From the NCBI GenBank assembly GCA_041662205.1, contig JBAZSZ010000003.1, forward strand, positions 9,772 to 73,771: 64,000 nt of DNA. Direction: 5' to 3'. Below, in pieces: positions 10,266-62,328 of this stretch. A model generated the notes under the pieces. It was not told the origin of the DNA and searched no databases. It was given only the letters and a program-made list of their open reading frames with translations. The first letter of the stretch is position 1. Each line of letters begins with the position of its first letter. The DNA comes from Minisyncoccota bacterium. GTDB taxonomy: Bacteria; Patescibacteriota; Minisyncoccia; Phycocordibacterales; UBA9973. The position numbers were made by a program, and so were the translations under genes.

Positions 10266-10270
10266 AATTA

Positions 10271-10290
10271 ATCTACGCTATAGCGTAGAT
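10271..10290. repeat. Perfect 20-bp palindrome atctacgctatagcgtagat (copy 2)
   Basis: Identical to 9857..9876. Starts 6 nt after the stop of ORF 9903..10265. Confidence 0.9.
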
Positions 10291-10340
10291 GCAATAAGTA
10301 ATCTATTTATTTTTTAACTTCTCTCTGTTATACTCTTTAC

Positions 10341-10613
10341 ATGAACATTAAAGACGTTGAAAACCTTGCCAGCCTTGCTAGAATTGAGCTAGGAGAAGAA
10401 GAAAAAAAGAACCTACTCTCCGATATGGAGAGTATTTTAGGTTACGTCAAACAGATTGAAGAAGTGAAAGCCGAAGACGTAGAACCGGAATATAAAGTTT
10501 ATAATGTTTGGCGAGAGGACGAAATAATTCCAAGAGAATTTTCAAGAGAAATTATCGCAGAACAATTTCCAGATGCGCAAGAAGGATTTTTGAAAGTTAA
10601 AAAGATTTTGTGA
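10341..10613 (+). CDS. gatC: Asp/Glu-tRNA amidotransferase subunit C
   Basis: 90 aa. Begins MNIKDVENLASLARIELGEEEKKNL, which is GatC-like. Immediately precedes gatA. Confidence 0.8.
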   Translation: MNIKDVENLASLARIELGEEEKKNLLSDMESILGYVKQIEEVKAEDVEPEYKVYNVWREDEIIPREFSREIIAEQFPDAQEGFLKVKKIL

Positions 10614-10689
10614 ACATATCCTGTCATAAATTTTTTCCTCTTCCTCCCTTCTTGGATTACCAAGTGGGACCCACAGAGTTAAAAAATTT

Positions 10690-12132
10690 ATGACAGGCTA
10701 TGTTTTAAACAATATGATTGATTTAGAAAATTTAACAATAGAAAAAGCAAGAAAAGCTCTTGATGCGAAAGAATTTTCGGCGGTAGATTTAGCGTCCGCT
10801 TATTTAGCCGAGATTGAAAAGAAAAATAAAGAACTCAATGCATATTTGGAAGTTTTTGATGATGTGCTGGAACAAGCAAAAAAAGCAGACGAGATGATAG
10901 CCAAAGGGGAGACTTATCCACTACTTGGTATTCCTTTGGCTATTAAAGATGTGATATTAATCAAAGGCAGGAAAGTTTCTGCTGCTTCAAAAATTCTAGA
11001 AAATTATATCGCTTCGTATGATGCTACAGTTATCACTAAATTAAAAAAACAAGGGGTAGTATTTTTAGGTAGAACTAATACCGATGAATTTGCGATGGGT
11101 GGCTCTACTGAAAATTCAGCTTATGGAGTAACAAGAAATCCTCACGATGTATCACGGGTAGCAGGAGGGTCTTCTGGTGGATCAGTGGTCGCGGTGGCTG
11201 CAAATATGGCTCTGGGAGCCTTGGGTTCTGATACAGGTGGATCAGTGCGAGAGCCAGCTTCTTTTTGTGGAATAGTAGGCATGAAGCCTACTTATGGGAG
11301 GGTTTCTCGATATGGTCTTATCGCTATGGGTTCTTCTTTGGATTGTATTGGATCTATTGCTAAAAATATAACTGATGTTGAAATTATCTATAATGCTATT
11401 TATGGAAATGATGTGTTAGACAGCACTAGTATCACAGACACTACTTATTCAAAATCTTCCTTTAAAAAAGTTATTGGTGTGCCATGGGACTTAGTAAATG
11501 GAGAGGGTGTTGATTCAGATGTTAAGGAAAATTTTAAACAGTCTGTTTTAAAGTTAGAAAATCTTGGTTTTAAAATTAAAGATATTTCAATAAAAAATTT
11601 AGATCTAGCTCTGGCAATATATTATATTATAATGCCCGCTGAAGCGTCCACTAATTTGTCTCGTTTTGATGGGGTGCGATATGGTCTACACAAAGAAGGT
11701 AAAAATTTATTAGAAGATTATATGTTAACAAAAGGAAAAGGTTTTGGGAGAGAGGTTCGCCGTAGAATACTTTTGGGTACTTATGTGCTTTCTGCTGGTT
11801 ATTATGATGCTTATTATGGCAAGGCCCAAAATATTCGTAGTGTCTTAAGAAAAGAATTAATAAAAACATTTCAAGACGTTGATATTATAGCCACACCTAC
11901 TTCTCCTATACCGGCTTGGAAAATAGGGGAAAAAAGTGATCCGCTTTCTATGTATTTAGCAGATATATTTACTATTACTGCGAATATTGTTGGAGTTCCA
12001 GCTGTTTCAATACCATCAGGCTTAATGGAGGTAGAAGGCAAAAAATTACCTCTTGGTATTCAGTTTATGGTGTCACATGGAGCAGAAGAAGTGCTTTTCG
12101 AAGTCGGTAAAAAATTTGAAGAAATGCTATAA
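10690..12132 (+). CDS. gatA: Glu/Asp-tRNA amidotransferase subunit A (amidase signature family)
   Basis: Amidase signature block GGSSGGSVVAVAANMALGALGSDTGGSVREPA with the catalytic Ser, at GatA length. Confidence 0.9.
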   Translation: MTGYVLNNMIDLENLTIEKARKALDAKEFSAVDLASAYLAEIEKKNKELNAYLEVFDDVLEQAKKADEMIAKGETYPLLGIPLAIKDVILIKGRKVSAASKILENYIASYDATVITKLKKQGVVFLGRTNTDEFAMGGSTENSAYGVTRNPHDVSRVAGGSSGGSVVAVAANMALGALGSDTGGSVREPASFCGIVGMKPTYGRVSRYGLIAMGSSLDCIGSIAKNITDVEIIYNAIYGNDVLDSTSITDTTYSKSSFKKVIGVPWDLVNGEGVDSDVKENFKQSVLKLENLGFKIKDISIKNLDLALAIYYIIMPAEASTNLSRFDGVRYGLHKEGKNLLEDYMLTKGKGFGREVRRRILLGTYVLSAGYYDAYYGKAQNIRSVLRKELIKTFQDVDIIATPTSPIPAWKIGEKSDPLSMYLADIFTITANIVGVPAVSIPSGLMEVEGKKLPLGIQFMVSHGAEEVLFEVGKKFEEML

Positions 12133-12850: not shown

Positions 12851-12855
12851 ATATA

Positions 12856-12924
12856 GCGGGGTAGAGAAGAGGTATCTCGTAAGGCTCATAACCTTAAGAC
12901 TCACGTTCGATTCGTGACCCCGCA
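12856..12924 (+). tRNA. tRNA with CAT anticodon (Met or Ile-lysidine type), short D-arm
   Basis: Acceptor gcggggt/accccgc. Anticodon stem taagg/cctta with loop ctCATaa. T-loop ttcgatt. Folded by eye. Confidence 0.55.
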
Positions 12925-12980
12925 ACAAGTCGGCAAGTGACATGCCAAAATGTCTAATTGTCGAGTATAATGTATAATAT

Positions 12981-13053
12981 GTCGGCGTAGCTCAGTTAGT
13001 AGAGCACGGGACTCATAAGCCCGGGGTCGCAGGCGCACTCCCTGCCGCCGACA
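12981..13053 (+). tRNA. tRNA with CAT anticodon, three G:C pairs in the anticodon stem (initiator-like), atypical T-loop (cgcactc)
   Basis: Acceptor gtcggcg/cgccgac. D-arm tagctcagttagtagagca. Anticodon loop ctCATaa. T-stem gcagg/cctgc. Confidence 0.5.
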
Positions 13054-13075
13054 CCCTCAAAAAAGAGGAAAATAT

Positions 13076-13149
13076 GCGGGCGTAGCTCAACTGGTTAGAG
13101 CGCATCCCTGTCACGGATGAGGTTGCCGGTTCAAGTCCGGTCGCTCGCG
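13076..13149 (+). tRNA. tRNA-Asp (GTC)
   Basis: Acceptor gcgggcg/cgctcgc. Anticodon stem catcc/ggatg with loop ctGTCac. T-arm gccgg-ttcaagt-ccggt. Confidence 0.8.
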
Positions 13150-13158
13150 CAAATTAAA

Positions 13159-22038: not shown

Positions 22039-22794
22039 ATGAAAAAAATTATTGCTATTGGTGGTGGAGAAATTGGAAAGCCCGGATACCCAATTGAAAC
22101 CACTCAAATAGATAAAGAAATAATAAATTTAACTGGCAAGAAAAATCCAAAATTGCTTTTTATTCCTACGGCTAGTTCTGATTCAGAAGAATATTATTGG
22201 ACAGTTGAAAAACATTTTGGGAAACGACTAGGTTGTAAAGTTGATGTCTTATATTTGTTGAAAAATAAACTATCAAAAAAAGAAATCGAAGATAAGATTT
22301 TAAAATCTGACATAGTTTATGTGGGTGGTGGCAACACTTTGAAAATGATGCAAATTTGGAGAAAGTTTGGAATAGATAAAATTTTAATTAAAGCTCATCA
22401 AAAAGGAATTGTGATGTCGGGTGTAAGCGCTGGGTCAATATGTTGGTTTAAAAATGGAAATTCGGACTCAAGAAAATTCAAGAATCCAAAAGTAAATTTT
22501 AATTATATAAAAATTTCAGGTTTAGGTTTAATAAATGCGCTTCATTGTCCTCACTATGATGTAGAAAAAAAAAGAAAAGTTGATCTTAAGAAAATGATGA
22601 AAAAAACTTCAGGTACTGCTATCGCCATAGATAATTGTTGTGCCTTAGAAGTAATTGATGATAAATATCGAATTATTACTTCAAAAAAAACTGCAAATGC
22701 TTATAAGGTTTATTGGAAAGCAAATAAATATTATGAGGAGGTGATTAAAAAAGAAAAGAATTTTAAATCATTAAGTATTTTTTTGGTAAAATAA
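22039..22794 (+). CDS. Peptidase S51 family (dipeptidase E / cyanophycinase-like)
   Basis: GGGNTLKMM ... GVSAGSICWF carries the nucleophile-elbow Ser. Class I glutamine-amidotransferase-like fold. Confidence 0.7.
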   Translation: MKKIIAIGGGEIGKPGYPIETTQIDKEIINLTGKKNPKLLFIPTASSDSEEYYWTVEKHFGKRLGCKVDVLYLLKNKLSKKEIEDKILKSDIVYVGGGNTLKMMQIWRKFGIDKILIKAHQKGIVMSGVSAGSICWFKNGNSDSRKFKNPKVNFNYIKISGLGLINALHCPHYDVEKKRKVDLKKMMKKTSGTAIAIDNCCALEVIDDKYRIITSKKTANAYKVYWKANKYYEEVIKKEKNFKSLSIFLVK

Positions 22795-22925
22795 AAACAT
22801 TTTAATTTCAAAAACACTTTATTTTATAAGCACTTTATAACAGTAAGGTTTGACAAAACACCTCAATCTGTTATGTTGTAATAAATCTACACATTGAAAA
22901 CTTAATATAAAAAAAGGAGGGTCCA

Positions 22926-23504
22926 ATGATTATTTCTCTCAGTGGGCCCTCCGGAATCGGTAAGGGCTTTATCAAAGAACAACTATTACAGCTTTATCCA
23001 CAGATTCAGGAATTAGCGTGGTTTACAACCCGTCCTTTGCGTTCCAATGAACACCAGAGCGGAAACAGAATTCACACTCCACTTCCTGAATTCAATCAGA
23101 TGGCTAAATTTGGTAAGTTGGTCTTGATCCAAAATCTCTTTGGCCATTATTATGGCCTTAAAAAAGAAGATTTACTCCCAAGTTCAGACATCAAACTGAC
23201 TGAGGTGCATCCAGACAATATGTTGGAAGCAAAAAGAATTAACCCTGAAATATTTGCTATTGGTTTTGTAACCTTTGACCACTCTTTACTTCACAAAAGG
23301 CTTTCTATTTTGCGAAAGACAGAAAGCTCGGAAGAGATACAGAAAAGAGTTGCAATGGCTGCAAGTGAGATTAAGACAATCCTTAAGAGAAGGTCACTGT
23401 TTGCTTCTGTGATTGAAATCACAGAAACTGAAGAGGATCAAGTGTTCGGAAAGGTTCACGTAATTTTGCAATCACAAATTAAACAGAGAGGAGAAGAAAA
23501 ATGA
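22926..23504 (+). CDS. P-loop kinase, guanylate-kinase-like
   Basis: Walker A SLSGPSGIGKG and a TTRPLR motif (GMP kinases have TTRPPR). Strong RBS aaaaggaggg. Local GC is clearly above the genome background. Confidence 0.55.
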   Translation: MIISLSGPSGIGKGFIKEQLLQLYPQIQELAWFTTRPLRSNEHQSGNRIHTPLPEFNQMAKFGKLVLIQNLFGHYYGLKKEDLLPSSDIKLTEVHPDNMLEAKRINPEIFAIGFVTFDHSLLHKRLSILRKTESSEEIQKRVAMAASEIKTILKRRSLFASVIEITETEEDQVFGKVHVILQSQIKQRGEEK

Positions 23505-24652
23505 AATTAGAAACACAAGTTGGTAATCTGAAGTTGCAGACACCGTTGTTGCTAGCTTCAGGATACATCACCGAAACGCCTGAGTTTTTTCTGAGAGCTC
23601 AACCCTATGGTTGTTCGGGTATCGTTACTCGATCGCTTAAACAGCATGTTCCAGCAGAACGTTCACGGATTACATCTCCTCGTTACGCAGTTTTCGATAA
23701 AGACAGCATGCTCAACTGCGAGTGGGGGAATGAAAGACCTTGGACAGATTGGCGAGATTATGGTGTGCATCAGGTCAAAGAGACTGGTTGCCCTATCATT
23801 ATTTCGCTTTCAGGACGCGACCTGGATAGCTGTTGCTATCTGATCCGTACCCTCGATGAGATCGGTGTTGATGCTTTCGAAATCAATATCTCGTGTTCGC
23901 ATTCTGGAGCACTGTACGGAAATTTGAATGTCGATGCACTTCATCTAGAGCAATTGATGAAAAAAGTGCGTGGCACTACGACGACCCCAATCTGGATTAA
24001 GTTGTCGTATTCGAATTTGTTGATTCCGATGGCTAAGATTGCGGAAGAGCTAGGAGCTAATGCTATTGTTTGCACAAATAGCATTGGTCCCGGAATGTTG
24101 ATTGACACCAAAACAGCCAAACCAAAACTCGGAATAAAGGGCGGAGGTGGAGGAATGACAGGAAAAGCAATTTTTCCTATTGCTCTGTGGTGTGTGCATC
24201 AACTTTCAGAGAATCTTAGCATCCCAGTTGTCGGTTGTGGTGGAATTTACACTGCTGACGATGTAGTTCAGATGCTGATGGCGGGTGCAAGTGCGGTTCA
24301 GCTTTATACCGCACCAGCACTTAAGGGCCCTATAGTTTTTAAACGGATTATGGTTGGCCTGCAAAGATTTCTCACAGAGAATCCAAAGTATGATTCGGTT
24401 AAGAATTTAGTTGGACTCTCATTAGGGAAGACAGACAATCACCAGTTTTCTTCACCTCGTCCAGTCGTGATTGAAGAAAAGTGTACAGGCTGTGGAATCT
24501 GTGTCCAATCCTGCGCTTTTGATGCCCTAGTAATGACTCCTCGTGGTGTCGACAAAAAGGCATTAGCGGTCATTAGCGACAATTGTATCTCATGCAACGC
24601 TTGCGTTGGGGTGTGTCCTCAAAAATTCGATGCTATCAGAGCATCATTTTAG
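23501..24652 (+). CDS. Dihydroorotate/dihydropyrimidine dehydrogenase-family flavoprotein with a fused C-terminal 2x[4Fe-4S] ferredoxin domain (PreA-like)
   Basis: DHOD/DPD TIM-barrel motifs (CTNSIGPGM, GGGMTGKAIFPIAL, VVGCGGIYTADDVVQMLMAGASAVQLYTA). C-terminal CTGCGICVQSCAFDA and CISCNACVGVCPQ. Start overlaps the kinase stop by 4 nt. Confidence 0.7.
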   Translation: MKLETQVGNLKLQTPLLLASGYITETPEFFLRAQPYGCSGIVTRSLKQHVPAERSRITSPRYAVFDKDSMLNCEWGNERPWTDWRDYGVHQVKETGCPIIISLSGRDLDSCCYLIRTLDEIGVDAFEINISCSHSGALYGNLNVDALHLEQLMKKVRGTTTTPIWIKLSYSNLLIPMAKIAEELGANAIVCTNSIGPGMLIDTKTAKPKLGIKGGGGGMTGKAIFPIALWCVHQLSENLSIPVVGCGGIYTADDVVQMLMAGASAVQLYTAPALKGPIVFKRIMVGLQRFLTENPKYDSVKNLVGLSLGKTDNHQFSSPRPVVIEEKCTGCGICVQSCAFDALVMTPRGVDKKALAVISDNCISCNACVGVCPQKFDAIRASF

Positions 24653-24669
24653 GAGGTTAAAAAAGTGAT

Positions 24670-24912
24670 ATGAAAACATACACAATTGCAATACATTGCA
24701 ACGCTTGTCGAGCCTTACTGTATCGCTACAAAAAAGAAGGTGGTGGACATCTTCTCAAGTGTTATGCTGACATGATAATGTTGGACAGCACCAAGGGTGA
24801 TCTAAAATGTCCTTCTTGCGGTCAAGAGTTTGCTCGACACGCCATTATTCACAATCGCCCCGCACACAAGATAATCCAAGGGAGAGTCTTTGTGAAGGGC
24901 CATCATGGGTGA
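24670..24912 (+). CDS. Small zinc-ribbon protein (CNAC...C...CPSC)
   Basis: 80 aa with Cys pairs CNACRALLY and CPSCGQEF. Last gene of the GC-rich block. Confidence 0.4.
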   Translation: MKTYTIAIHCNACRALLYRYKKEGGGHLLKCYADMIMLDSTKGDLKCPSCGQEFARHAIIHNRPAHKIIQGRVFVKGHHG

Positions 24913-24935
24913 TGGCTTTGTAACACATCATTACC

Positions 24936-24972
24936 AACAGGTAGCTGAGTTGAACCTCAGCTACCTGTTTTT
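24936..24972. terminator. Strong bidirectional rho-independent terminator
   Basis: aacaggtagctgag-ttgaac-ctcagctacctgtt followed by ttt. Sits between the convergent Zn-ribbon and CYTH genes. Confidence 0.65.
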
Positions 24973-25588
24973 ACTTAATATTAAATCTATTTTTAAAATA
25001 ATTAGGAGTGTAATTTTTGTAATCAAAAATCTCGTTAGCTTCTTTATTTAATTTATCTATGTATTCAAAAAATTGTTTTTTATCAAAAATATCAAGCTTG
25101 AGTTCTCTGCAAACATTTTCAATTTCTTTAATTAATTCATCCCCATTTTCTTTTTTATTTGCCATTTTTTCTGCTTCGTAATAATAGCTGTGTCCCGGTA
25201 CTTCTACTAATGCGAATTCAATATCTTTATATTCATAAACTTTACTTTTCCTGACACAAAGCATTCCTTTAATAAATCCTAGTTCACCAAAAATTTCTAC
25301 CAAAGTATCAAATTCACCAGGTTTAGTGAAAGCAGAAAGTTCTTTTCGCTGTTCATTTCCTCCCCATTCCCCAATTTTAACAATAATTTCAGGAATTCCA
25401 TTGGTTGTTCGAAGTCGTATATCTTTTTTTCTATCCTCAACCCCACCTTCTAGAAAAGTAGAATAATCAATTAAAATTCGATCCTTTTCTGATTTCTTTG
25501 TACCTTTTTCTTCAAAAAATTTTACTAAATTATCAAATTCTTTTTTCGACAGAGGACCCCGTATTTCAATTTCTATATTTTTATCCAT
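24971..25588 (-). CDS. CYTH-domain protein (triphosphate tunnel metalloenzyme / class IV adenylyl cyclase-like)
   Basis: N-terminal EIEIRGPL (ExExK-type), then DIRLR, EIIVKIG and ALVEVPGHSYYYEAE beta-strand motifs of the CYTH tunnel. Confidence 0.55.
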   Translation of the reverse strand: MDKNIEIEIRGPLSKKEFDNLVKFFEEKGTKKSEKDRILIDYSTFLEGGVEDRKKDIRLRTTNGIPEIIVKIGEWGGNEQRKELSAFTKPGEFDTLVEIFGELGFIKGMLCVRKSKVYEYKDIEFALVEVPGHSYYYEAEKMANKKENGDELIKEIENVCRELKLDIFDKKQFFEYIDKLNKEANEIFDYKNYTPNYFKNRFNIK

Positions 25589-25591
25589 AAT

Positions 25592-26707
25592 TTATTGATT
25601 TCTTAAATTTATAAACAATTGTTTTATGATCATAGTGGCATAACTACCTGTTGGTAAATAAAATGAAAGTGTTATTTTCTTTTTATTTTTATGAAATTCA
25701 TCGGGCTCTAAATCATGAGCATACATATTAGTAGCAACTAAGAGATTTCTCTTGTTTGGTTTTGGTTTAACTAAGAAGTTTTCTGAAATTAATTCATATC
25801 CTCCTGCTTCATAAATGTGCGGACATTGAAACAGATAATCAGTGGGTAAATATAATCTTCCAACATTTTTAAATAAACTATTTTTACTTTTTGTATGTTT
25901 TTTTATTATCAATGAAGCCTGAGTGTTCCATAAAAAACTATTATAAGCGGAGACAAAGAATGAAACCTTTTTGGGATTCATGGATTCAAAAATTTTTTTA
26001 AAATTAGCAATATTTTTTGTTTTTAATTCACCTTTTTGAGTGATATTATTAGTGATTTTTAATTGTTCAAAAGCTTGCTTCCAATTATTTTTCACTATTG
26101 CTTTGCCAATCAAATGAGTATTATATGGACCACCTGGCATTCCAAATCGTTGGTTGTCATAGTAGTTAATAAAATAAAGTTGTTTATGGTTATGAATATA
26201 ATCTAAAAGATTATTAGCCAAAGAAGAATTTAAATTTCTTACTACAATTTTAAAAGCATTGCCATGGAGGGCTCTTTCTTTTATTGCTTTTTCTCCGTAA
26301 CCAATTACGTATTTAATTTTTGCAAACTTATTTTTTAAAACATATTTTTTATTGAAAGCTTTAATATCTTTTTCTTTTAGAACTTTTTTTATAGAAATAA
26401 GTTGTTCAGTGATTGCATCTTCATCTTTTAATCCTTGACTACATACATCCTCAAATGAAAGTTTAAAAAATATCTTAATTTGTTCCAAAATTTCAAATGT
26501 CGTAAATCCAGATTTTTGAAGCCAAATATAAGTAAATTTGCGAAGACCTTTTTGTGTAAAAGATGGCATTAAAGATACTTCTGTTACTTGGAAGTCTTCA
26601 TTTATGCATTTAAGCTTGTAACTTAATGAATTATTCATAATTTGTGCATTATGCCACATTAACTTGTATTTTACTAGTTTTTCAAGTGATAATAATTCTA
26701 TCCTCAA
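25592..26707 (-). CDS. truD: tRNA pseudouridine synthase TruD/Pus7 family
   Basis: Catalytic-Asp motif SQGLKDEDAITEQ (TruD: GxKDxxAxTxQ) and C-terminal INYYDNQRFGMPGG (TruD: NYFGxQRFG). Confidence 0.75.
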   Translation of the reverse strand: MRIELLSLEKLVKYKLMWHNAQIMNNSLSYKLKCINEDFQVTEVSLMPSFTQKGLRKFTYIWLQKSGFTTFEILEQIKIFFKLSFEDVCSQGLKDEDAITEQLISIKKVLKEKDIKAFNKKYVLKNKFAKIKYVIGYGEKAIKERALHGNAFKIVVRNLNSSLANNLLDYIHNHKQLYFINYYDNQRFGMPGGPYNTHLIGKAIVKNNWKQAFEQLKITNNITQKGELKTKNIANFKKIFESMNPKKVSFFVSAYNSFLWNTQASLIIKKHTKSKNSLFKNVGRLYLPTDYLFQCPHIYEAGGYELISENFLVKPKPNKRNLLVATNMYAHDLEPDEFHKNKKKITLSFYLPTGSYATMIIKQLFINLRNQ

Positions 26708-29270: not shown

Positions 29271-29343
29271 GCCATCCTAGCTCAGTTGGTAGAGCGCGGT
29301 CTTCGTAAGACTGAGGTCCCGAGTTCGATCCTCGGGGATGGCT
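29271..29343 (+). tRNA. tRNA-Thr (CGT)
   Basis: Acceptor gccatcc/ggatggc. Anticodon stem cggtc/gactg with loop ttCGTaa. T-arm ccgag-ttcgatc-ctcgg. Confidence 0.8.
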
Positions 29344-29344
29344 C

Positions 29345-30232
29345 ATGGAAAATAATACAAACGAAATTACAAAAGAGATAGCAGAAGTGGAAGCAGAAAT
29401 GCAGGCTCCAGATTTTTGGAATGATAAAAATAAGGCACAGGCGACGTTGAAGAAATTGGCAGAACTAAAAGAAAAAAAAGAAGGGGTAGGTAAATACGAT
29501 AAAGGCAATGCTGTAGTCACCATAATTTCCGGTGCCGGCGGAGATGACGCAGAAGATTTTTCAGCGATGCTTTTGTCTATGTATCTGAAGTATGCCGAAA
29601 AAAGTGGCTGGAAAGTTTTTTTTATTCATGAAAATAAAAATGAACATGGTGGATATAGAAACATAAGCGTAGAAATTTCAGGTAAAAATGTCTACGGGAA
29701 TTTAAAAAATGAATCTGGGGTGCACCGCTTGGTACGAATCTCACCTTTTGACGCAAAAAAATTACGACATACTTCTTTTTCCATGGTGGAAGTTCTGCCA
29801 AAATTTTCTAAATTTGAAGAAAAAGATTTTTCCATACCACCTGCTGATCTAAAGATAGAATATTCTCGTTCTGGAGGTCCGGGTGGGCAGAACGTGAATA
29901 AGAGAGAGACAGCGGTCCGCCTAGTGCATATCCCTACAGGGATAGCGGTGCATGCCTCAAATGAACGATCTCAAGAACAAAATCGAGAACGGGCGATGGC
30001 GATACTTTTAGCAAAAATTTTCAAAAAAGCACAAGAAGATAAGAAGACGATAGAAGAAAGTTTGAAATTGACTAAAAATACTGAAATAGAATGGGGGAAT
30101 CAGATTCGTTCTTATGTGTTGCATCCTTATAAAATGGTCAAAGACCACCGGACTGGAGTGGAAACTTCGAATGTTGATTCGGTTCTTGATGGGGAAATAG
30201 ATATTTTTATTGAGGCAGAAAAGAATTTGTGA
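29345..30232 (+). CDS. prfB: Peptide chain release factor 2 (short N-terminus, no programmed-frameshift site)
   Basis: RF2 motifs [20 protein letters not shown] (GGQ), IRSYVL and [12 protein letters not shown]. The ORF begins 1 nt after the tRNA; the true start may be Met19 (MQAPDFWND, about 29399). Confidence 0.8.
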
Positions 30233-31923: not shown

Positions 31924-33561
31924 ATGCAAAAAAAGGAAACAAAATATATTTTTGTAGTGGGTGGGGTTATGTCTTCTGTGGGTAAGGGTATTGCTGCTTC
32001 TTCTATTGGAAAAATATTACAGTCTCGCGGTTATAAAGTAGCAAATATGAAAGCGGATATGTATGTTAATCTTGATGCGGGGACTATTCGCCCTGCTGAA
32101 CACGGAGAAGTTTTTGTCGGAGAAGATGGAATAGAAGCTGATCAAGATCTCGGAAATTATGAACGTTTTACAAATCAGATTAGTACCCGCGAAAATTATA
32201 TCACTACTGGACAAGTATATGCAGAGGTAATAAAAAGAGAACGGAATTTAGAGTACGAAGGGGAAGATGTCGAAGTTTACCCTGATATCCCAAAAGAAAT
32301 AATCAGGCGCATTGAAGCTTGCCAAGAAAAAAATGAGTCTGAAATTACTATCATAGAATACGGAGGCACAGTGGGGGAATATCAGCTTCTTCCTTTTCTT
32401 GAAGCGACTCGGATGATGAAATCAAAAAATCCCTCTAGTGTTTTTGTTGTTTTAATAAGTTATTTGCCGACACCTATTATCTTGGGTGAGCAAAAATCAA
32501 AACCTACTCAGCATGCCATTACTGATCTTCATTCCATGGGTTTAAATCCTGATTTTGTGATTTGTCGAGCTGATAAACCTGCCACTTCAGACATCAAACG
32601 AACTATTAGCAATGTGTGTAGTTTACCGATAGAGAGAATAATCTCCGCACCAGATGTGTATTCTATTTATGATGTGCCGGTTAATTTTGAAAAAGAAAAT
32701 CTCGGCGATACTTTGCTCAAAACTATTGGCTTGAAGCCACGAGAGCAGGATTTGGCTAATTGGACGGCTTTGGCAAATAAAATAAAAAATATAAAAAAAG
32801 AAGTGCGGATCGGTATAGTAGGTAAGTATTTTAATTTTAAATCTTGCAAGGATACTTATATTTCTGTGATTGAATCTATCAACCACGCTACTTGGGCCCT
32901 GGGTTATAAGCCAGATATCGTATGGCTTGATTCAGAAAAATATGAAAAAAATCATAAATTATTAAGCGAGCTTGATGAGCTAGACGGCATTATTGTTCCT
33001 GGAGGGTTTGGCAATAGGGGTGTAGAAGGGATGATCTTAGCAGCAGATTATGCTCGTAGGAAAAATATCCCATATTTTGGTTTGTGTTTAGGGATGCAAA
33101 TTTTAACGATTTCTTATGCTCGGAATGTTTTAAAATTTAACAATGCTAATTCTACTGAGATGAATGCGAATACCCCATATCCCGTTATCGCTACCATGGC
33201 TGACCAAGTAGAAAAAATAAAGAATAAAAATTATGGAGCAAGTATGCGTTTAGGTGCTTATGATTGTCTTTTGGCCAAGGACACCATTGCATTTCAATCT
33301 TACAAAGCTCCTAAGATTTCCGAACGTCATCGACATCGATATGAAGTTAACCCAAAATATATTGCAGAATTAGAAAAAGCTGGTTTAGTATTCTCTGGCC
33401 GATCTCCAGATGGAGTTTTGATGGAAATAGCAGAACTTCCGAAAAAAGTACATCCATTTTACTTAGGTACTCAATTTCATCCTGAATTCAAATCTCGTCC
33501 ACTTGATCCACATCCTCTTTTCTCCTCTTTCATCAAGGCAAGTATAAATAATAAGAATTAA
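31924..33561 (+). CDS. pyrG: CTP synthase
   Basis: N-terminal synthetase domain (IFVVGGVMSSVGKGI) and C-terminal class-I GATase with GLCLGMQ (catalytic Cys) and HRHRYEVN. Confidence 0.9.
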   Translation: MQKKETKYIFVVGGVMSSVGKGIAASSIGKILQSRGYKVANMKADMYVNLDAGTIRPAEHGEVFVGEDGIEADQDLGNYERFTNQISTRENYITTGQVYAEVIKRERNLEYEGEDVEVYPDIPKEIIRRIEACQEKNESEITIIEYGGTVGEYQLLPFLEATRMMKSKNPSSVFVVLISYLPTPIILGEQKSKPTQHAITDLHSMGLNPDFVICRADKPATSDIKRTISNVCSLPIERIISAPDVYSIYDVPVNFEKENLGDTLLKTIGLKPREQDLANWTALANKIKNIKKEVRIGIVGKYFNFKSCKDTYISVIESINHATWALGYKPDIVWLDSEKYEKNHKLLSELDELDGIIVPGGFGNRGVEGMILAADYARRKNIPYFGLCLGMQILTISYARNVLKFNNANSTEMNANTPYPVIATMADQVEKIKNKNYGASMRLGAYDCLLAKDTIAFQSYKAPKISERHRHRYEVNPKYIAELEKAGLVFSGRSPDGVLMEIAELPKKVHPFYLGTQFHPEFKSRPLDPHPLFSSFIKASINNKN

Positions 33562-41683: not shown

Positions 41684-41935
41684 ATGAAAGATGACCGTCC
41701 TGAAGTTTTGAAAGAGCATTACCCTGATTTTTTGGTGCGTTGGGCTTCTGACGCGTTAGAAAAAGGCGGGTTCGCTTCGGGAGACCTGCTGTTGCTCGGA
41801 CAGCCCGAGCAGCGTCAAAAGATTGCTGAATTTCGGCTCGTTTTGCATGATCGGGCCGAGATAGTTTTAAAACCCTCCATCCCCAAGATGGAGGAAGAAA
41901 AGCCCGAAAGTTATTTCGGGCAAGGTATAAGTTAA
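41684..41935 (+). CDS. Small acidic hypothetical protein in a GC-rich (~50%) patch
   Basis: Strong RBS gaaaggagga. 83 aa. Followed by a hairpin terminator near 41940..41990. Confidence 0.45.
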   Translation: MKDDRPEVLKEHYPDFLVRWASDALEKGGFASGDLLLLGQPEQRQKIAEFRLVLHDRAEIVLKPSIPKMEEEKPESYFGQGIS

Positions 41936-43129: not shown

Positions 43130-43741
43130 ATGTCTCCGTTTACTAAAAGGGAAATTACGCTGATGCGGAAATTAAATACCCCTGCCAGGGTTCAGGATTT
43201 TTTAGATGGGCTAAGGTTTAATTTTGAGAAGGGAGGAGAAACATTAAAATCTCCTATTTTTACTTTAAGGACACGAAATGCACATTGTTTTGAGGGAGCT
43301 TTACTCGGCGCTTATATTTTGTCTTTACATGGTTTCAAACCTTATTTGATGCATTTCAAGGTAATGAAAGGAGATTATGATCATGTTATTACCTTATTCA
43401 AAGTAGGTGGGTTTTGGGGCGCATTATCAAAAACCAATCATGCGGTTTTGCGTTATCGTGAACCAATTTATAAGAATGTTAGGGAACTCGCTATGTCCTA
43501 TTTCCATGAATATTTTTTAAATAATAGAAAAAAAACATTAAGACAATATTCAGCCCTTCTCGATCTAAATACTTGTGAAAAAGATTGGGCAATTTCAGAG
43601 GATAATCTCTGGTATATAGATAAAAAATTAGACAGAATAAAACATTACGATATTGTTCCAAAAGCTTATCTCAAAAAACTTCGCAAGGCAGACAAAATTG
43701 AAATAGAGGCTACCAAAATTGTCGAGTTTAAAAAATACTAA
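43130..43741 (+). CDS. Transglutaminase-like cysteine peptidase superfamily protein
   Basis: Catalytic-Cys context RNAHCFEGALLGAYIL followed by a His motif DHVITLFKVGGFWGAL, as in the TGase-like papain fold. Confidence 0.45.
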   Translation: MSPFTKREITLMRKLNTPARVQDFLDGLRFNFEKGGETLKSPIFTLRTRNAHCFEGALLGAYILSLHGFKPYLMHFKVMKGDYDHVITLFKVGGFWGALSKTNHAVLRYREPIYKNVRELAMSYFHEYFLNNRKKTLRQYSALLDLNTCEKDWAISEDNLWYIDKKLDRIKHYDIVPKAYLKKLRKADKIEIEATKIVEFKKY

Positions 43742-45512
43742 AAATACTATCTAGTAATTTTATAAACCAGTTTTTCTTTGTATTTTCCTTTTGTTCTATT
43801 TGATTTGTTGTAGGGATAGAATCAATGGCATTTATCACTGTAGCAGTATTTTCAAGTTTGTTATTTTTTATAATTTTTTTAGGAGCTTTCACCGCAATTT
43901 GATTTACTGTTGTAATTTTTGGCTTTTCAAACTTTTGCATTATTTGATTCCAAGTTTTACCAGATAATACAGAAGCAACATAAGAAGTTTCCCAGATTTT
44001 ATTATTTATATTGTCGTTTTTCGTTCCGCCATCGATGTCTTGTATTGTTGCCAGATAATCAAGTGGTGTGTCTTCATTTTTTTTCCAGTCTTCTATTTTC
44101 TCACCTAATGCGAGGATTCCTTCTATCGCCCAAGCAGTAGATGAAGCATTACCCCAGCCACCGTCTTCTTTTTGTTTTTGTTTTAAGAATTCTCTAGCTT
44201 TTACCAAACTTCCCATTACCTTTTCCCCTTCACCTGGTGAAGGGGAAAAGGTGGAGAGAGCCTCTATCGCTGCGCCTGTCATATCTACGGAATTATCCCA
44301 TGAACCATCTGCATTTTGTGCTTTTAGAACAAAAAGAATATCATCCTCTATCATTTTATCAGTTATTGTATAGCCTGCGTTTTGTAAAACAATTAAAGCA
44401 AATATGTCATCATTGTCTTCGTGGATATCTCCAAATTGTGTGCCATCAAAACTCTCTATAATTTTTTTAATGTAATTTAAACCACTCGTGTCGTATGGGT
44501 TCTGTCCTAGGGACATTAGGGCCATTGCGTGTCTTTCGTGATCTGTCAGAGATAGATTTTCTATTTTTATTTCTTTAAAATATTTAATCAATTTTGATAT
44601 TTGTTCTGGATAATTTGCCGATGCTAGTGCCATTGTTGTCCAATCAGTATACAAATCTTCGCCAAAAGATCCGTTTTCTTTTTGTTGTGACGCAAGAAAG
44701 TTGAAAGCCTTTTGTAAATCAAAAGAAAGTTTTGGTTTTGGAGCGATAGGTGCGACAAATATTCTACTCCCACCACTAGAACGTGAAACCACTGGCTCTG
44801 GAATGACAGCAGGTTCAGGGTTAGGCGCTGGTGGTGTTGTCACAGTTAGAGTTTCAGTTGGAAAGTAATAATCTTCTTTAATTCCAATATTATATGAACC
44901 AACACCTAATGGTGTAAAAATTGCTTGTCCATTTTCATCAACCGGTTGCACTTGAATTTCGGTTGGCGACCAAGGATCACTGGGATTTGGTTGCGTTGCT
45001 CCTATATTTACACTTGTTAAAGCCAGCCAGCTATTATTTTGATAATCATAATCTTGTGCGTTTATTGTTAAAATATCATTTGTATTTATTGAATTAGAAC
45101 TTAAAATTATTTTATGGTGTGGTCCAAAATAAAGATATACGCTTTCTACGCCAGTAAGAATTTTTTTATCTATTGCATCATAAGGATAAGAATTATTTAC
45201 CGTGTATTGCCAATTATCGCAACTGCTATCAATGCATTTTAAATAAAATCCCATACTGGAATATTGTAAATCAGTAATTGAAAAATTATCGCTTAAAGTA
45301 TCCGCATCCATTAATACTGAAAGAACACTATTAGCATCAACATCTTGTCCTTGTATTTGAATTGTTCCAGGTGTTTGAAGTGGAACAGCTCCGGAATAAA
45401 TAATATTGGCTTCGTTTCGTATTGTTAAATTAACATTTGCGGCTAAAACAACATTTTTCCCGACAAAAAACAACGTCACTAATAAAACTATTTTAATAAT
45501 TTTATTTTTCAT
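43728..45512 (-). CDS. Secreted surface protein: N-terminal DUF4430-like domain plus C-terminal prenyltransferase/squalene-cyclase-type alpha-alpha toroid repeats
   Basis: Repeated DGSW/DGGW..W..A motifs (ENGSFGEDLYTDWTTMALAS, DGSWDNSVDMTGAAIEAL, DGGWGNASSTAWAIEGILAL). The N-terminal WQYTVNN...VYLYFG segment is DUF4430-like. Confidence 0.6.
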   Translation of the reverse strand: MKNKIIKIVLLVTLFFVGKNVVLAANVNLTIRNEANIIYSGAVPLQTPGTIQIQGQDVDANSVLSVLMDADTLSDNFSITDLQYSSMGFYLKCIDSSCDNWQYTVNNSYPYDAIDKKILTGVESVYLYFGPHHKIILSSNSINTNDILTINAQDYDYQNNSWLALTSVNIGATQPNPSDPWSPTEIQVQPVDENGQAIFTPLGVGSYNIGIKEDYYFPTETLTVTTPPAPNPEPAVIPEPVVSRSSGGSRIFVAPIAPKPKLSFDLQKAFNFLASQQKENGSFGEDLYTDWTTMALASANYPEQISKLIKYFKEIKIENLSLTDHERHAMALMSLGQNPYDTSGLNYIKKIIESFDGTQFGDIHEDNDDIFALIVLQNAGYTITDKMIEDDILFVLKAQNADGSWDNSVDMTGAAIEALSTFSPSPGEGEKVMGSLVKAREFLKQKQKEDGGWGNASSTAWAIEGILALGEKIEDWKKNEDTPLDYLATIQDIDGGTKNDNINNKIWETSYVASVLSGKTWNQIMQKFEKPKITTVNQIAVKAPKKIIKNNKLENTATVINAIDSIPTTNQIEQKENTKKNWFIKLLDSIFSIF

Positions 45513-45861
45513 ATTTCCAAGAGACTATATCTCCAAAGTTAATTTTATAATTTGAAACACCGACTTGTGCTTCAATACCGTTCACATAATAAATCCAATT
45601 TTCTGACCCATTTCCTTTAATTCCATTTATCGAGTCTATAAATTTCCCAATTCCTGCATAATTTTTTTCTGTAAAATTTATTTTTCCTTCTTCTCGCAGT
45701 TTACTCATAAAATCATAAACACTCATTTCGCCCGTGATCGTATCTTTTAATTCAATATTGTTTATGAGGCTAGGTGTAGAAGTATGAGGTATTATAAAAA
45801 AAACGCTTAAAATAGCTATAAAAATTAAAATTATTAAAATTATTTTTTTTCTTTTAGACAT
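45502..45861 (-). CDS. DUF4430-domain protein (transcobalamin-like beta domain family)
   Basis: Signal/TM, then ENWIYYVNGIEAQVGVSNYKINFGDIVSWKY, matching the DUF4430 W.Y.VNG...G.....l..GD.i.W.Y signature. Overlaps the downstream gene by 11 nt. Confidence 0.6.
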   Translation of the reverse strand: MSKRKKIILIILIFIAILSVFFIIPHTSTPSLINNIELKDTITGEMSVYDFMSKLREEGKINFTEKNYAGIGKFIDSINGIKGNGSENWIYYVNGIEAQVGVSNYKINFGDIVSWKYEK

Positions 45862-46164
45862 AAAAAAATTCTGCTATTTTGAGCAGAATCTGAGAAACTT
45901 TCATTATAGGTAGAAATAAGGAAAGCTTATCCTGCTCGGGACACACATAAAATGATTGGTATTCGGGCTTGTTCCTTCCACCTTTTGGTGTTTAGGACTT
46001 ACCGTAGCGGCACTGCACTGGAATCTAACCAGTTTCCCCAATCACTTCTTTTAATTTTCAAGTTAACTCCTTTAGTATATACTTACATTATATTATGTCA
46101 AAGAAGAATGTGGATATTAAGAAAACAAGAAATCAAAAAAGGGCACAAACCCGCCAAAGGCGGG

Positions 46165-59433: not shown

Positions 59434-62328
59434 ATGAAAGAATACGATCATAAGAAAATTGAAAAAAAGTGGCAGATTCTTTGGGAGAAAAAAGGAATTT
59501 ATCACGCCCAAAACAAATCTAAAAAAAAGAAATATTATAGTTTGATTGAATTTCCTTATCCATCGGGGGATGGTATGCACGTGGGACATATCAGAAGTAA
59601 TACCGCAATGGATATCATTTCCCGCAAGCGTAGAATGGAAGGCTTTAATGTGCTTTACCCCATAGGTTGGGATGCTTTCGGTTTACCTACAGAAAATTAT
59701 GCCATAAAGACAGGCAAACAACCTGCTGTTATCACAAAAAAGAATACAGATACTTTTAGGAGGCAGCTTCAGTCTATTGGTTTTTCTTTTGATTGGTCTA
59801 GAGAAATAAATACCACAGATCCAAAATATTATAAATGGACACAATGGATATTTTTACAATTTTTGAAAAAAGGTTTGGCTTATAAAGCGAAAATGACCAT
59901 TAATTGGTGTCCGAAAGATAAAATTGGCTTGGCAAATGAAGAAGTGATAAATGGATGTTGTGAACGTTGCGGAACTACTGTAGAACAAAGAGAAAAAGAA
60001 CAGTGGATGCTCGCGATTACTAAATACGCCGATAGACTCTATGAAGACTTAGATGATGTTGATTATCTTCCACAAATAAAACTCGGGCAGAGAAATTGGA
60101 TAGGGAAATCCGAAGGCGCAGAAATCGAATTTAAAATTTCTTCCCCTATCCCAGGGATGGGGGAAAAGGTGAAAGTTTTTACCACGCGTCCAGATACTAT
60201 TTTTGGGGCGACATATCTTGTGCTTGCGCCCGAGCACCAATTAGTCCAAAAATTAAAATCACAAATTCCAAATTGGAAAGAGGTGGAGAAATATATTGAG
60301 GAAACAAAAAGTAAAACTGAGATAGATAGAAAAATTGAAGACAAAATAAAAACTGGAGTTGAACTGAAAGGAATTAAGGCAATAAATCCGGCAACAAAAG
60401 AAGAAATTTCTGTGTGGATTGCAGATTATGTACTTTCAACATATGGCACAGGAGCGATAATGGCAGTTCCCGCACATGATGAGAGAGATTTTGCATTTGC
60501 AAAGAAGTATAATTTAGAAATCAAGAATGTTATTGAACCAATTTTTGTTAATAATCCAAAAGAAGATTTACACTTTGTTGAACGAGAAGCTATACATGCA
60601 ATAGTAAAACATTGGACAGAAGAAAAATATTTAGCTCTAAAGTGGAAAAAAGTCGACTGGCTAACTTTTGTAACTGGAGGGGTAGAATCTGGAGAAAATA
60701 CTAAAGATGCTGCAATACGAGAGATTCAAGAAGAAACTGGATATCAAAATATAAAATTAATTAAAGAGTTACCACGTTCACATAGTAAGTTTTATCATGA
60801 GCCCAAAAAAGAAAATCGTTTTGCTCATTTTTCTAACTTTTATTTTCAACTCATTAATGATGAACAAAAAGAATTATCTCAAGAAGAAAAAGAAATACAT
60901 GAATTAAGATGGATGACTATAGAAGATTTGGAAAAAGAGATGACAATAGGTGGTGCTTTACGAGATTTAGAAAATTTACAAGGTAAAGAAAAATTTTATC
61001 TGGGCAATGGTATAGTAACTAATTCTGGGAGATTTGATGGTCAGGATTCAGAAAAAGCTAAAAAGGAAATTGTAAAATTTGTCGGGGGGAAAATAAAAAC
61101 TACTTTTAAGCTTCGTGATTGGATTTTTTCTAGACAGCGATATTGGGGTGAACCTATTCCGGTAATTCATTGTGAAGATTGTGGAATGGTCCCTGTGCCG
61201 GAAAAAGATTTACCAGTAGAATTACCAAAAGTAAAAAATTATCAGCCGACGGATAGCGGGGAATCACCGCTCGCAAATATTGCAAAATGGGTGAACGTAA
61301 AATGTCCAAAGTGTAAAGGCAAAGCCAATAGGGAAACAGACACGATGCCAAACTGGGCTGGTTCTAGCTGGTATTATCTTCGCTATACAGATCCAAAAAA
61401 TAAAAAAGAATTTGCCAATAAAAAAAATCTAAAATATTGGACACCAGTGGATTGGTACAATGGAGGCAATGAACACACCACACTTCATCTTTTATATTCT
61501 CGTTTTTGGCATAAATTTTTGTACGATTTAAAATTAGTGCCGACAAATGAACCATATATGAAACGTACTTCACACGGTATGATTTTAGGTGGGGGAGGTG
61601 TAAAAATGTCAAAGTCTCTTGGTAATGTAATAAATCCAGACGATATAGTAAAAACATATGGTGCAGATACATTACGCCTTTATGAGATGTTTATGGGGCC
61701 TTTCAATCAATCCGTCGCTTGGAGTGAAGAAGCGATTATTGGGCCGAGAAGATTTTTGGAAAGGGTGTGGAAGATAGGGAAACAAGTTGCCGAGCCTGAT
61801 ACTTTTACTCAGTCGCTCGGTCCCTCGCTTCGCTCAGCCACTCCTTCGCAAAAGCATACAGGCTCGGCAATGTCTGTTTCAAAACTACTCAATAAAACTA
61901 TCAAGAAAGTAACCGAAGATATCGAAGAAATGCGTTTTAATACGGCAGTTTCGACGATGATGATCTTGGTAAATGAAATGGATAAAAACGAAGTTAGTAT
62001 AAAAGATTTTAAAAAATTCTTACAGATTCTTGCTCCATTTGCTCCACACATTACTGAAGAACTTTGGGGTGTATTGGGTGAGAAAAAAACAATTCATCTT
62101 TCAGAGTGGCCTAAGTGGGATAAAAATTTTATTCAAGATGAAGAGATAAAAATAGCAGTACAGATAAATGGGAAAGTTAAGGCAGAAATAATGATATTGC
62201 TTGATGAAGACGAAGAGTCAATAAAGAAAAAAGTCTTTGCCAATGAAACAGTTTTGAAACAAATAGCTGGCAAAGAAATAAAAAAAGTGTTTTATGTAAA
62301 AAATAGACTTTTAAACATAGTTTTGTAG
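59434..62328 (+). CDS. leuS: Leucyl-tRNA synthetase with an in-frame Nudix-hydrolase domain insertion after the editing domain
   Basis: HIGH (HVGH), editing-domain motifs, KMSKS. Between ...AHDERDFAFAKKYNLEIK and ...TNSGRFDG lies an insert of about 150 aa containing a perfect Nudix box, GGVESGENTKDAAIREIQEETGY. Total length 964 aa. Confidence 0.9.
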   Translation: MKEYDHKKIEKKWQILWEKKGIYHAQNKSKKKKYYSLIEFPYPSGDGMHVGHIRSNTAMDIISRKRRMEGFNVLYPIGWDAFGLPTENYAIKTGKQPAVITKKNTDTFRRQLQSIGFSFDWSREINTTDPKYYKWTQWIFLQFLKKGLAYKAKMTINWCPKDKIGLANEEVINGCCERCGTTVEQREKEQWMLAITKYADRLYEDLDDVDYLPQIKLGQRNWIGKSEGAEIEFKISSPIPGMGEKVKVFTTRPDTIFGATYLVLAPEHQLVQKLKSQIPNWKEVEKYIEETKSKTEIDRKIEDKIKTGVELKGIKAINPATKEEISVWIADYVLSTYGTGAIMAVPAHDERDFAFAKKYNLEIKNVIEPIFVNNPKEDLHFVEREAIHAIVKHWTEEKYLALKWKKVDWLTFVTGGVESGENTKDAAIREIQEETGYQNIKLIKELPRSHSKFYHEPKKENRFAHFSNFYFQLINDEQKELSQEEKEIHELRWMTIEDLEKEMTIGGALRDLENLQGKEKFYLGNGIVTNSGRFDGQDSEKAKKEIVKFVGGKIKTTFKLRDWIFSRQRYWGEPIPVIHCEDCGMVPVPEKDLPVELPKVKNYQPTDSGESPLANIAKWVNVKCPKCKGKANRETDTMPNWAGSSWYYLRYTDPKNKKEFANKKNLKYWTPVDWYNGGNEHTTLHLLYSRFWHKFLYDLKLVPTNEPYMKRTSHGMILGGGGVKMSKSLGNVINPDDIVKTYGADTLRLYEMFMGPFNQSVAWSEEAIIGPRRFLERVWKIGKQVAEPDTFTQSLGPSLRSATPSQKHTGSAMSVSKLLNKTIKKVTEDIEEMRFNTAVSTMMILVNEMDKNEVSIKDFKKFLQILAPFAPHITEELWGVLGEKKTIHLSEWPKWDKNFIQDEEIKIAVQINGKVKAEIMILLDEDEESIKKKVFANETVLKQIAGKEIKKVFYVKNRLLNIVL

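Follow-up and report, generated by a model that had tools for sequence, protein, structure and literature searches.

Introduction

PydAc, from Clostridium chromiireducens and C. pasteurianum, is a characterised ferredoxin-dependent dihydropyrimidine dehydrogenase (DPD) that works without a module for flavin adenine dinucleotide and NADPH; it joins a flavin mononucleotide (FMN) domain of the dihydroorotate dehydrogenase (DHOD) fold to [4Fe-4S] ferredoxin domain(s) in one polypeptide, and the C. pasteurianum variant has a single ferredoxin domain (PMC7332683). The pseudouridimycin clusters are an actinomycete antibiotic pathway with an oxidoreductase, an aminotransferase and ligases, in which PumJ/SapC and PumH/SapA bring a TruD-family enzyme together with an adenylate-kinase-like gene, and free phosphorylated uridine is the proposed substrate (PMC6586884). 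The concept of clearing modified pyrimidine nucleoside triphosphates (NTPs) comes from stand-alone house-cleaning pyrophosphatases such as Maf/YhdE, Maf proteins hydrolysing pseudo-UTP, 5-methyl-UTP and 5-methyl-CTP (PMC3899018). Here we describe a locus that combines comparable activities, at least as predicted, in a 64,000-nucleotide stretch of contig JBAZSZ010000003.1 from a Minisyncoccota (Patescibacteria) bacterium, hereafter the window. It encodes a P-loop nucleoside monophosphate (NMP) kinase-like protein (K), a flavoprotein (D), a putative small zinc protein (Z), a CYTH (triphosphate-tunnel) protein and a TruD/Pus7-family pseudouridine-synthase-like protein.

The unit is in fact one of five genes, K, D and Z forming its invariant core and the CYTH and TruD-like genes completing it. 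We propose, tentatively and with somewhat less than even confidence, that free uridine-type nucleotides are the substrates of this module, in organisms living on scavenged nucleotides. The enzymes are all members of known superfamilies; the gene combination, its distribution and its probable chemistry appear new to the literature, in which we found no description of the module. To our knowledge Patescibacteria and DPANN archaea have no de novo nucleotide synthesis, and the module bears on how they handle a host-derived, partly modified nucleotide diet.

Results

Module organisation and conservation

K (22926-23504), D (23501-24652) and Z (24670-24912) lie on the forward strand. The K and D genes overlap in ATGA, and the 17-nt gap between D and Z contains a GAGG ribosome-binding site; the ribosome-binding site 5' of K is AAAGGAGG. 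Further upstream of K is a promoter-like site on the same strand (22850-22877, TTGACA-N16-(TG)TATGTT), which matches at 10 of 12 positions with an extended -10 TG and is a consensus match only. The CYTH gene (24971-25588) and the TruD-like gene (25592-26707 as the longest open reading frame (ORF), with a likely start at 26659 or 26638) are on the reverse strand, convergent to K-D-Z. Between the two operons sits an intrinsic terminator (24936-24969, -25 kcal/mol, z -5.6), a perfect hairpin of 13-14 bp followed by a U-run. The window proteins are identical to NCBI entries MFA6177875-78 (locus tags WC694_03230 onward), and the Prokaryotic Genome Annotation Pipeline (PGAP) names K a 'hypothetical protein' and D a '4Fe-4S binding protein'.

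Two side observations concern the layout. The 5' arm of the terminator, TTACCAACAGGTAG (24931-24944), has an exact 14-nt inverted match in the TruD codons of the conserved LPTGS (25644-25657), about 0.05 such matches being expected by chance in the 5.3-kb region. A Peptidase_S51 gene (dipeptidase E/cyanophycinase family) adjoins the module in the window (22039-22794) and in L089 (9262-9840), a bacterial locus only distantly related, and is absent at the other module loci.

The module recurs widely. In counts based on hidden Markov models (HMMs), as far as the contigs permit, K is present in 35 of 36 Patescibacterial loci and CYTH in 34 of 37. The TruD-like gene was found in 27 of 34 such loci and in seven of eight loci of a diverged type, described below, in which D lacks its ferredoxin domain (Fd-less). 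Besides K, Z, CYTH and TruD we found no conserved neighbours of D in the 37 Patescibacterial loci. In L015 the five genes all run in the same direction, and K and D are fused into one protein in P0038/L013 and in L029. Catalytic signatures are retained in all five module families. The initial annotation had described a triad of K, D and Z; the neighbourhood search bears out their conserved linkage and extends the real unit to five genes.

In L083, L084, L089 and L090 the genes of the diverged version all point the same way as one operon, TruD-K-D-CYTH-Z, with an Fd-less D. This version is also present in the archaeal contigs L087, L088 and L091, and in the metagenome contigs L090-L094. L089 belongs to a bacterial metagenome-assembled genome (MAG) carrying RNase P protein, YidC and Jag, while L087 and L088 encode ribosomal protein L37e and class I lysyl-tRNA synthetase and are named 'archaeon' by NCBI; we infer that the module-bearing archaea are DPANN. 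Z is 67% identical to the window copy in the L083 module, where D is only 36% identical. Scanning metagenomes with the Fd-less D alignment brought up PreA-like proteins for the most part, with just five new module loci; the PreA-like set served as a comparison group for motifs. Nucleotide genes occur among the neighbours, namely a uridine-kinase-family gene (Udk) in L087 and an NT5C pyrimidine nucleotidase in L089. We found no signal of defence-system or phage families for the module.

Several single loci carry other neighbours. Directly upstream of the operon in L083 (3300-4568) is an HI0933/YhiN-family flavoprotein (TIGR00275, 430 bits), a family that includes the RdsA rRNA dihydrouridine synthase (PMC11317573), and a Trm5-like gene lies upstream of the module in L088. 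L094 has AbiEi/AbiEii toxin-antitoxin genes upstream of its K-D-Z-NUDIX genes, and at 10269-12054 a pyrF-like gene (99.8 bits, below cut-off) and a pyrE-like gene (344 aa, 119 bits, above the domain cut-off). The 4135-bp contig L005 (JAPLVQ010000042.1), from a bin named 'Candidatus Iainarchaeum archaeon', carries a Patescibacterial-type module with a D 86% identical to that of the window, which points to either a binning error or inter-domain transfer.

The pyrophosphatase slot

The CYTH protein of the window matches PF01928 at 25.4 bits, above the gathering threshold (GA) of 23.2, and its nearest solved structure is Pyrococcus PH1819 (2e-4). In the ExExK motif E6 and E8 are conserved, with Arg at the Lys position in the window copy. 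Against the class IV adenylate cyclase equivalog the window protein scores 28.4, below the cut-off of 57.95, and the L083 copy passes at 69.2.

Where CYTH is missing another enzyme takes its place, a NUDIX protein in four loci (L023, L026, L028, L094) and a Maf protein in one (L088). In all three CYTH-less Patescibacterial loci the NUDIX gene adjoins the module: it stands at the CYTH position in L026, with a HIT protein gene upstream, is divergent from K in L023, and lies between TruD and K-D in L028. The order in L094 is K-D-Z-NUDIX, the NUDIX start falling 1-2 nt past the Z stop, and in L088 it is TruD-K-D-Z-Maf. This is non-orthologous displacement: wherever the slot is visible it is occupied by a predicted nucleotide pyrophosphatase, drawn from three unrelated families. 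The occupation of one slot by three such families is our main reason for favouring free nucleotides over RNA as the substrate. Maf in L088 provides the link to house-cleaning, although the known enzymes of that kind act alone, whereas the module pyrophosphatase would be one step beside redox, isomerase-like and kinase partners (PMC3899018).

Flavoprotein D

D consists of an FMN barrel of the class-1 DHOD/DPD fold (about residues 1-310) and a C-terminal 2x[4Fe-4S] ferredoxin domain (residues ~319-383). It matches PF01180 (DHO_dh, 1e-41, 141.6 bits) and Fer4 families. The residues N72, E74, N129, S131, C132, H134 and N193 are invariant or nearly so, as are eight Cys of the C-terminal domain, enough for two [4Fe-4S] clusters. 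The initial annotation had predicted a DHOD/DPD-type barrel with C-terminal clusters, and these features are consistent with it.

Class 1B DHOD (PyrD/PyrK) and Escherichia coli PreA/PreT share the TIM-barrel fold and give the best-scoring HMMs for D, and PreA has the same C-terminal two-cluster domain. D nevertheless falls below the curated cut-offs, with 185.1 against 269 and 178 against 270 for the pyrD equivalogs and 147 against 335 for PreA, and it has a different genomic context, with no PyrK or PreT partner. The AlphaFold2 (AF2) model (predicted local distance difference test, pLDDT, 84.6) matches pig DPD over both domains (E 1e-23), and its barrel matches Lactococcus lactis DHOD-B with a template-modelling (TM) score of 0.85 (5ue9/1ep3). 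The match to Dus enzymes is weak (PF01207), PyrD and PreA models scoring far better.

The motifs point towards DPD. The substrate loop of D is MLNCEWGNE and the catalytic loop NISCSH, the counterpart of the latter in DHOD-B being NISCPNV. An acidic residue at Asn+2 and a His after SC[PS] are common to D, pig DPD and about 70 PreA-like proteins. Where DHOD has the loop that wraps the orotate carboxylate, D has NCEWGNE/NADNQN, carrying an acidic residue like DPD.

By architecture and motifs D would be a PreT-less FMN and 2x[4Fe-4S] enzyme matching PydAc. Both lack a PreT/PydA1 module and carry the DPD-type N-x-E, SC[PS]H and catalytic Cys, and the one-ferredoxin-domain layout of D resembles the C. 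pasteurianum variant. The initial annotation had remarked on the absence of PreT, which PreA normally needs. Neither the conserved neighbours nor the annotated genes of the window include a PreT-like gene, as stated there, but this is no anomaly, since PydAc works without PreT (PMC7332683). Unlike PydAc, D is never beside PydB, PydC or PydD; its partners are a kinase, to which it is coupled or fused, and the linked genes for Z, a pyrophosphatase and a TruD-like protein. The loop MLNCEWGNE is invariant in D and peculiar to it, and a sister version without the ferredoxin domain exists. The nearest non-module relatives of this architecture are 28-31% identical and come from WOR-3 and Asgard MAGs. 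The Asgard homolog (L037) lies inside a complete reductive pyrimidine-degradation cluster with amidohydrolase, CN-hydrolase, class-III aminotransferase and aldehyde dehydrogenase genes, and catabolic genes of this kind, including PydB and PydC, are absent next to D in all module loci.

Kinase K, the TruD-like protein and Z

K has the guanylate kinase (GMK) fold and falls short of the family models, with 24.5 bits for Pfam Guanylate_kin (GA 25.2), 60.7 against 160.45 for TIGR03263 and 63.3 against 263 for NF011325 (both gmk), and 22-41 bits against a cut-off of 156 for PhnN. It has in common with Gmk and with the ribose-1,5-bisphosphokinase PhnN the P-loop NMP-kinase fold, Walker A, TTRxxR, YG and the lid arginines. 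Because the P-loop (GPSGxGK), TTRxxR (T34, T35, R36, R39) and the three lid arginines (R125, R130, R141) are invariant across 35 members, K is predicted to be a competent kinase.

The positions that would read the guanine are different. On the model of the yeast and mouse crystal structures, we take the readers in GMK to be Glu in LEYA, the Ser/Thr that follows YYG and Tyr in DGxxY. Three canonical GMKs carry E, T and Y there; in K, whichever the module type, these are Leu/Val, Leu/Phe and Arg. K also has a motif of its own, [IL]TExH. Guanine recognition thus appears to have been lost from a guanylate-kinase fold, and K is probably not guanylate-specific. The Walker A and TTRPLR motifs on which the initial annotation based a GMP-kinase-like assignment are both kept, and it is the guanine-reading part of that assignment that does not hold.

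The TruD-like protein matches PF01142 (4e-41, 141.7 bits) and scores 128.7 against the TIGR00094 cut-off of 172.2. It keeps the GLKD catalytic motif and NYYDNQRFG, and its nearest solved structures are human PUS7 and Methanosarcina mazei TruD. As in the pseudouridimycin clusters, it is linked to a P-loop NMP-kinase-like protein (PMC6586884). The likeness is one of gene pairing, and those clusters have no DPD-like reductase, CYTH or Z.

Z has no Pfam or NCBIfam match, and its relatives number 222 close and 565 profile-level sequences. Invariant residues are C10, C13, C31, C47, C50, Tyr18, Tyr20, Lys22, Lys30, Phe54 and Arg56. The AF2 model (pLDDT 91.7) is all-beta with seven strands and has no significant fold match in the PDB by Foldseek, the best E being 0.58. 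The weak top matches (TM <=0.55) are zinc-pinned domains, namely the C-terminal domains of RIG-I/MDA5/LGP2, bacterial cereblon and Yippee/Mis18, and in a predicted model this resemblance can serve as a lead only. The module would give this very conserved protein, whose family extends to algae, its first functional context.

Composition and horizontal spread

The K-D-Z span (1987 bp) has a GC content of 0.430 (z 4.06) against 0.28 in each 2-kb flank, and the runner-up segments of that length in the window do not exceed 0.389. Third-position GC (GC3) is 0.36-0.42 (z 1.7-2.6), compared with a gene mean of 0.266 +/- 0.058; as GC3 is raised too, amino-acid composition is ruled out as the cause of the excess. 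A GC-rich, translationally coupled unit ending at a strong terminator, as first annotated, is therefore what the computed profile and the signals described above show. The deviation is family-wide, and heterogeneous within the module, with a persistent difference between its two halves. A single recent acquisition by this genome was rejected as its cause, given the family-wide pattern.

Between the window and L027, K is 77% identical, D 83%, CYTH 92% and TruD 83%, compared with 46-47% for the adjacent histidine kinase, a presumed ortholog. Identity at four-fold sites is 0.5-0.72 in the close group of modules and 0.14-0.41 in the distant group, against ~0.45 for the histidine kinase. As module identity and unsaturated four-fold sites exceed those of the neighbouring kinase, lateral spread of the whole module among Patescibacteria is supported at the level of sequence; module-bearing members range from 0.30 to 0.49 in genomic GC. 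There are no integrase or mobility genes by the module, its window neighbours being Peptidase_S51 and unknowns; flanking repeats are only AT-rich chance repeats; and no copy was found in viral contigs. The nearest tRNA is 2.7 kb away. A classical integrative island was rejected, since integrase, flanking repeats and adjacent tRNA are all absent. Horizontal acquisition of the three genes, as first proposed, is thus upheld in so far as spread and atypical composition are concerned, but it concerns the whole module and involves no visible mobility genes.

Discussion

We hypothesised a sequence of steps for the module. The pyrophosphatase would take (modified) pyrimidine NTPs down to the monophosphate. 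D, wired to ferredoxin through its own two [4Fe-4S] clusters, would convert a uracil ring lacking a 6-carboxylate between its 5,6-dihydro and aromatic states, in either direction. The TruD-like enzyme, where present, may interconvert N- and C-glycosidic isomers, that is uridine and pseudouridine nucleotides, and K would phosphorylate the resulting monophosphate, with Z as a putative accessory protein. All of the substrates are inferred, as are the direction in which each reaction runs and the part played by Z. Processing of free uridine-type nucleotides is most likely, ahead of pyrimidine or GDP synthesis. Pseudouridine and dihydrouridine are the two modified uridines that RNA releases most commonly, and it is possible that the module recycles or sanitises their nucleotides from scavenged RNA; this role is the most economical and best suits a K-D-Z core that does not vary, a pyrophosphatase that can be exchanged and a TruD that is optional. 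The initial annotation had suggested an unusual route of nucleotide salvage or modification from a kinase and reductase pair. Linkage with nucleotide genes does suggest such a route, one of five genes and not of a pair.

A number of points weigh against action on free uridine-type nucleotides. In DHOD and DPD the conserved asparagines bind a uracil ring with free N1-H and N3-H, and by analogy those of D would be a better fit for uracil, thymine or a C-glycoside than for N1-ribosylated dihydrouridine. A kinase and a pyrophosphatase working on one nucleotide would run a futile cycle if they had the same specificity. We know of no TruD-family enzyme shown to act in vitro on a free nucleotide, and the direction from uridine to pseudouridine is thermodynamically favoured, so that salvage from pseudouridine to uridine would need pull. 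Some members of the NUDIX and CYTH families are pyrophosphohydrolases or triphosphatases of RNA 5' ends. Z stands alone in Acidobacteria-like contigs and in algae, and is therefore not specific to the proposed chemistry. L094, the only module locus with such genes nearby, has its pyrF-like and pyrE-like genes 1.1 kb downstream of K-D-Z-NUDIX.

A more specific scheme, which we consider unlikely, would have the module act as a pseudouridine and dihydrouridine 'eraser' that regenerates uridine mono- and diphosphate (UMP and UDP), or else as a maker of dihydro-pseudouridine nucleotides, common to Patescibacteria and DPANN-like archaea, two groups of ultra-small symbionts wholly dependent on scavenged nucleotides, and with Z as a new zinc 'beta-tent-like' nucleotide-binding subunit. 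In such a pathway the TruD-family enzyme would use free nucleotides, and the DPD-type flavoenzyme would dearomatise or re-aromatise a uracil ring bound in a nucleotide.

It is equally improbable, in our judgement, that the module works on RNA itself. The TruD-like protein would then be a tRNA pseudouridine-13/35 synthase and D a Dus-like, ferredoxin-driven RNA dihydrouridine synthase, while trimming of RNA 5'-triphosphates would fall to CYTH or NUDIX, with K serving as a polynucleotide kinase and Z as an RNA-end-binding protein. TruD/Pus7 enzymes of known substrate do act on RNA, and the catalytic Asp, NxQRFG and the structural similarity to Pus7 and archaeal TruD are in keeping with this. Dus belongs to the same flavin TIM-barrel superfamily as D, the RIG-I/MDA5/LGP2 domains that weakly resemble Z bind 5'-ppp RNA, and two modules have potential RNA-modifying genes upstream, the Trm5-like gene in L088 and, in L083, the gene of the RdsA family (PMC11317573). 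However, the Maf protein that replaces CYTH in L088 is known solely as a free-NTP pyrophosphatase (PMC3899018), and K keeps the mononucleotide-phosphate binding set of an NMP kinase. D is far closer to PyrD and PreA than to Dus, with its small-molecule-binding asparagines all kept; the fold matches of Z are insignificant; and the neighbours (Udk, NT5C, HIT) belong to nucleotide metabolism.

Ferredoxin-dependent pyrimidine catabolism, or an electron sink, seems less probable again. Patescibacteria are fermenters that use ferredoxin, and D could be a PydAc-type uracil/thymine reductase fed by K and the pyrophosphatase. The shared architecture (PMC7332683), the DPD-like motifs and the position of the L037 homolog in a full Pyd cluster would suit such a role, yet none of about 46 module loci has a dihydropyrimidinase, ureidopropionase or aminotransferase nearby, the version of D without a fused electron-transfer domain speaks against it, and the K-D fusions, the TruD-like gene, Z and the obligatory pyrophosphatase are left unexplained.

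We regard biosynthesis of a C-nucleotide as very unlikely. Here the pyrophosphatase would convert uridine triphosphate to UMP, the TruD-like enzyme UMP to pseudo-UMP, D pseudo-UMP to 5,6-dihydro-pseudo-UMP, and K would yield the diphosphate, a linear order that uses each enzyme once. Pseudouridine is a 5-substituted uracil with a free N1-H, thymine-like, and so fits the asparagines of D. TruD-like and NMP-kinase-like pairs open C-nucleoside antibiotic pathways (PMC6586884), and the DPD family has supplied enzymes for other substituted uracil rings (UacX, PMC12507026). Against this, TruD is missing from seven of 34 loci that keep K-D-Z, which is incompatible with a linear TruD-first pathway, and genes for tailoring, export or a ligase are absent. 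Nor do we know of such a metabolite.

The least probable explanation, that D is an ordinary diverged PyrD converting dihydroorotate to orotate and K the GMP or UMP kinase of the cell, has in its favour the best HMM matches (pyrD class 1B and gmk), the retained catalytic Cys and FMN-barrel motifs, the pyr-like genes of L094 and a CTP synthase gene 7 kb downstream in the window, but all equivalog cut-offs are missed widely, PGAP names neither protein pyrD or gmk, the orotate-carboxylate loop of D and the guanine-binding residues of K are gone, no PyrK, PyrB, PyrC, PyrE or PyrF occurs among the annotated window genes or in the 37 Patescibacterial loci, and the conserved partners are TruD, CYTH and Z rather than pyr genes. 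The initial annotation had itself named ordinary pyrD/gmk as the alternative, and the curated family cut-offs argue against it.

If the module does process free uridine-type nucleotides, with a TruD-like enzyme acting on free nucleotides or a DPD-like enzyme on nucleotide-bound rings, these would be new activities for large enzyme families. Its genes are presently annotated as 'hypothetical', '4Fe-4S binding protein', 'CYTH' and 'TruD', and the module is compact, strongly conserved and experimentally tractable.

Other features of the window

The CTP synthase (PyrG) gene lies at 31924-33561 on the forward strand and is the only canonical pyrimidine-pathway gene among the annotated window genes. 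An RF-2-like ORF (29345-30232, 295 aa) starts right after tRNA-Thr(cgt) (29271-29344); its PCRF match begins only at model position 95, so the protein is either N-terminally short or has its 5' part encoded elsewhere. Rfam finds a third tRNA (12981-13053, 54 bits) between tRNA-Met and tRNA-Asp (12855-13150) that is absent from the ARAGORN result. An 83-aa ORF (41684-41935, forward strand) without a Pfam match has the highest GC (0.48) and GC3 (0.49) of the window.

The region 43728-46087 (reverse strand) contains a cobalamin riboswitch (45937-46087, 40.9 bits) ahead of two ORFs, one of 119 aa and one of 594 aa with squalene-hopene-cyclase-like repeats. It is possible that this unit serves a B12-regulated uptake or surface function, the organism being an unlikely maker of B12. 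In the leucyl-tRNA synthetase ORF (59434-62328, forward strand, 964 aa) a NUDIX domain (PF00293, E 2e-17, residues 408-502) is inserted after the editing domain.

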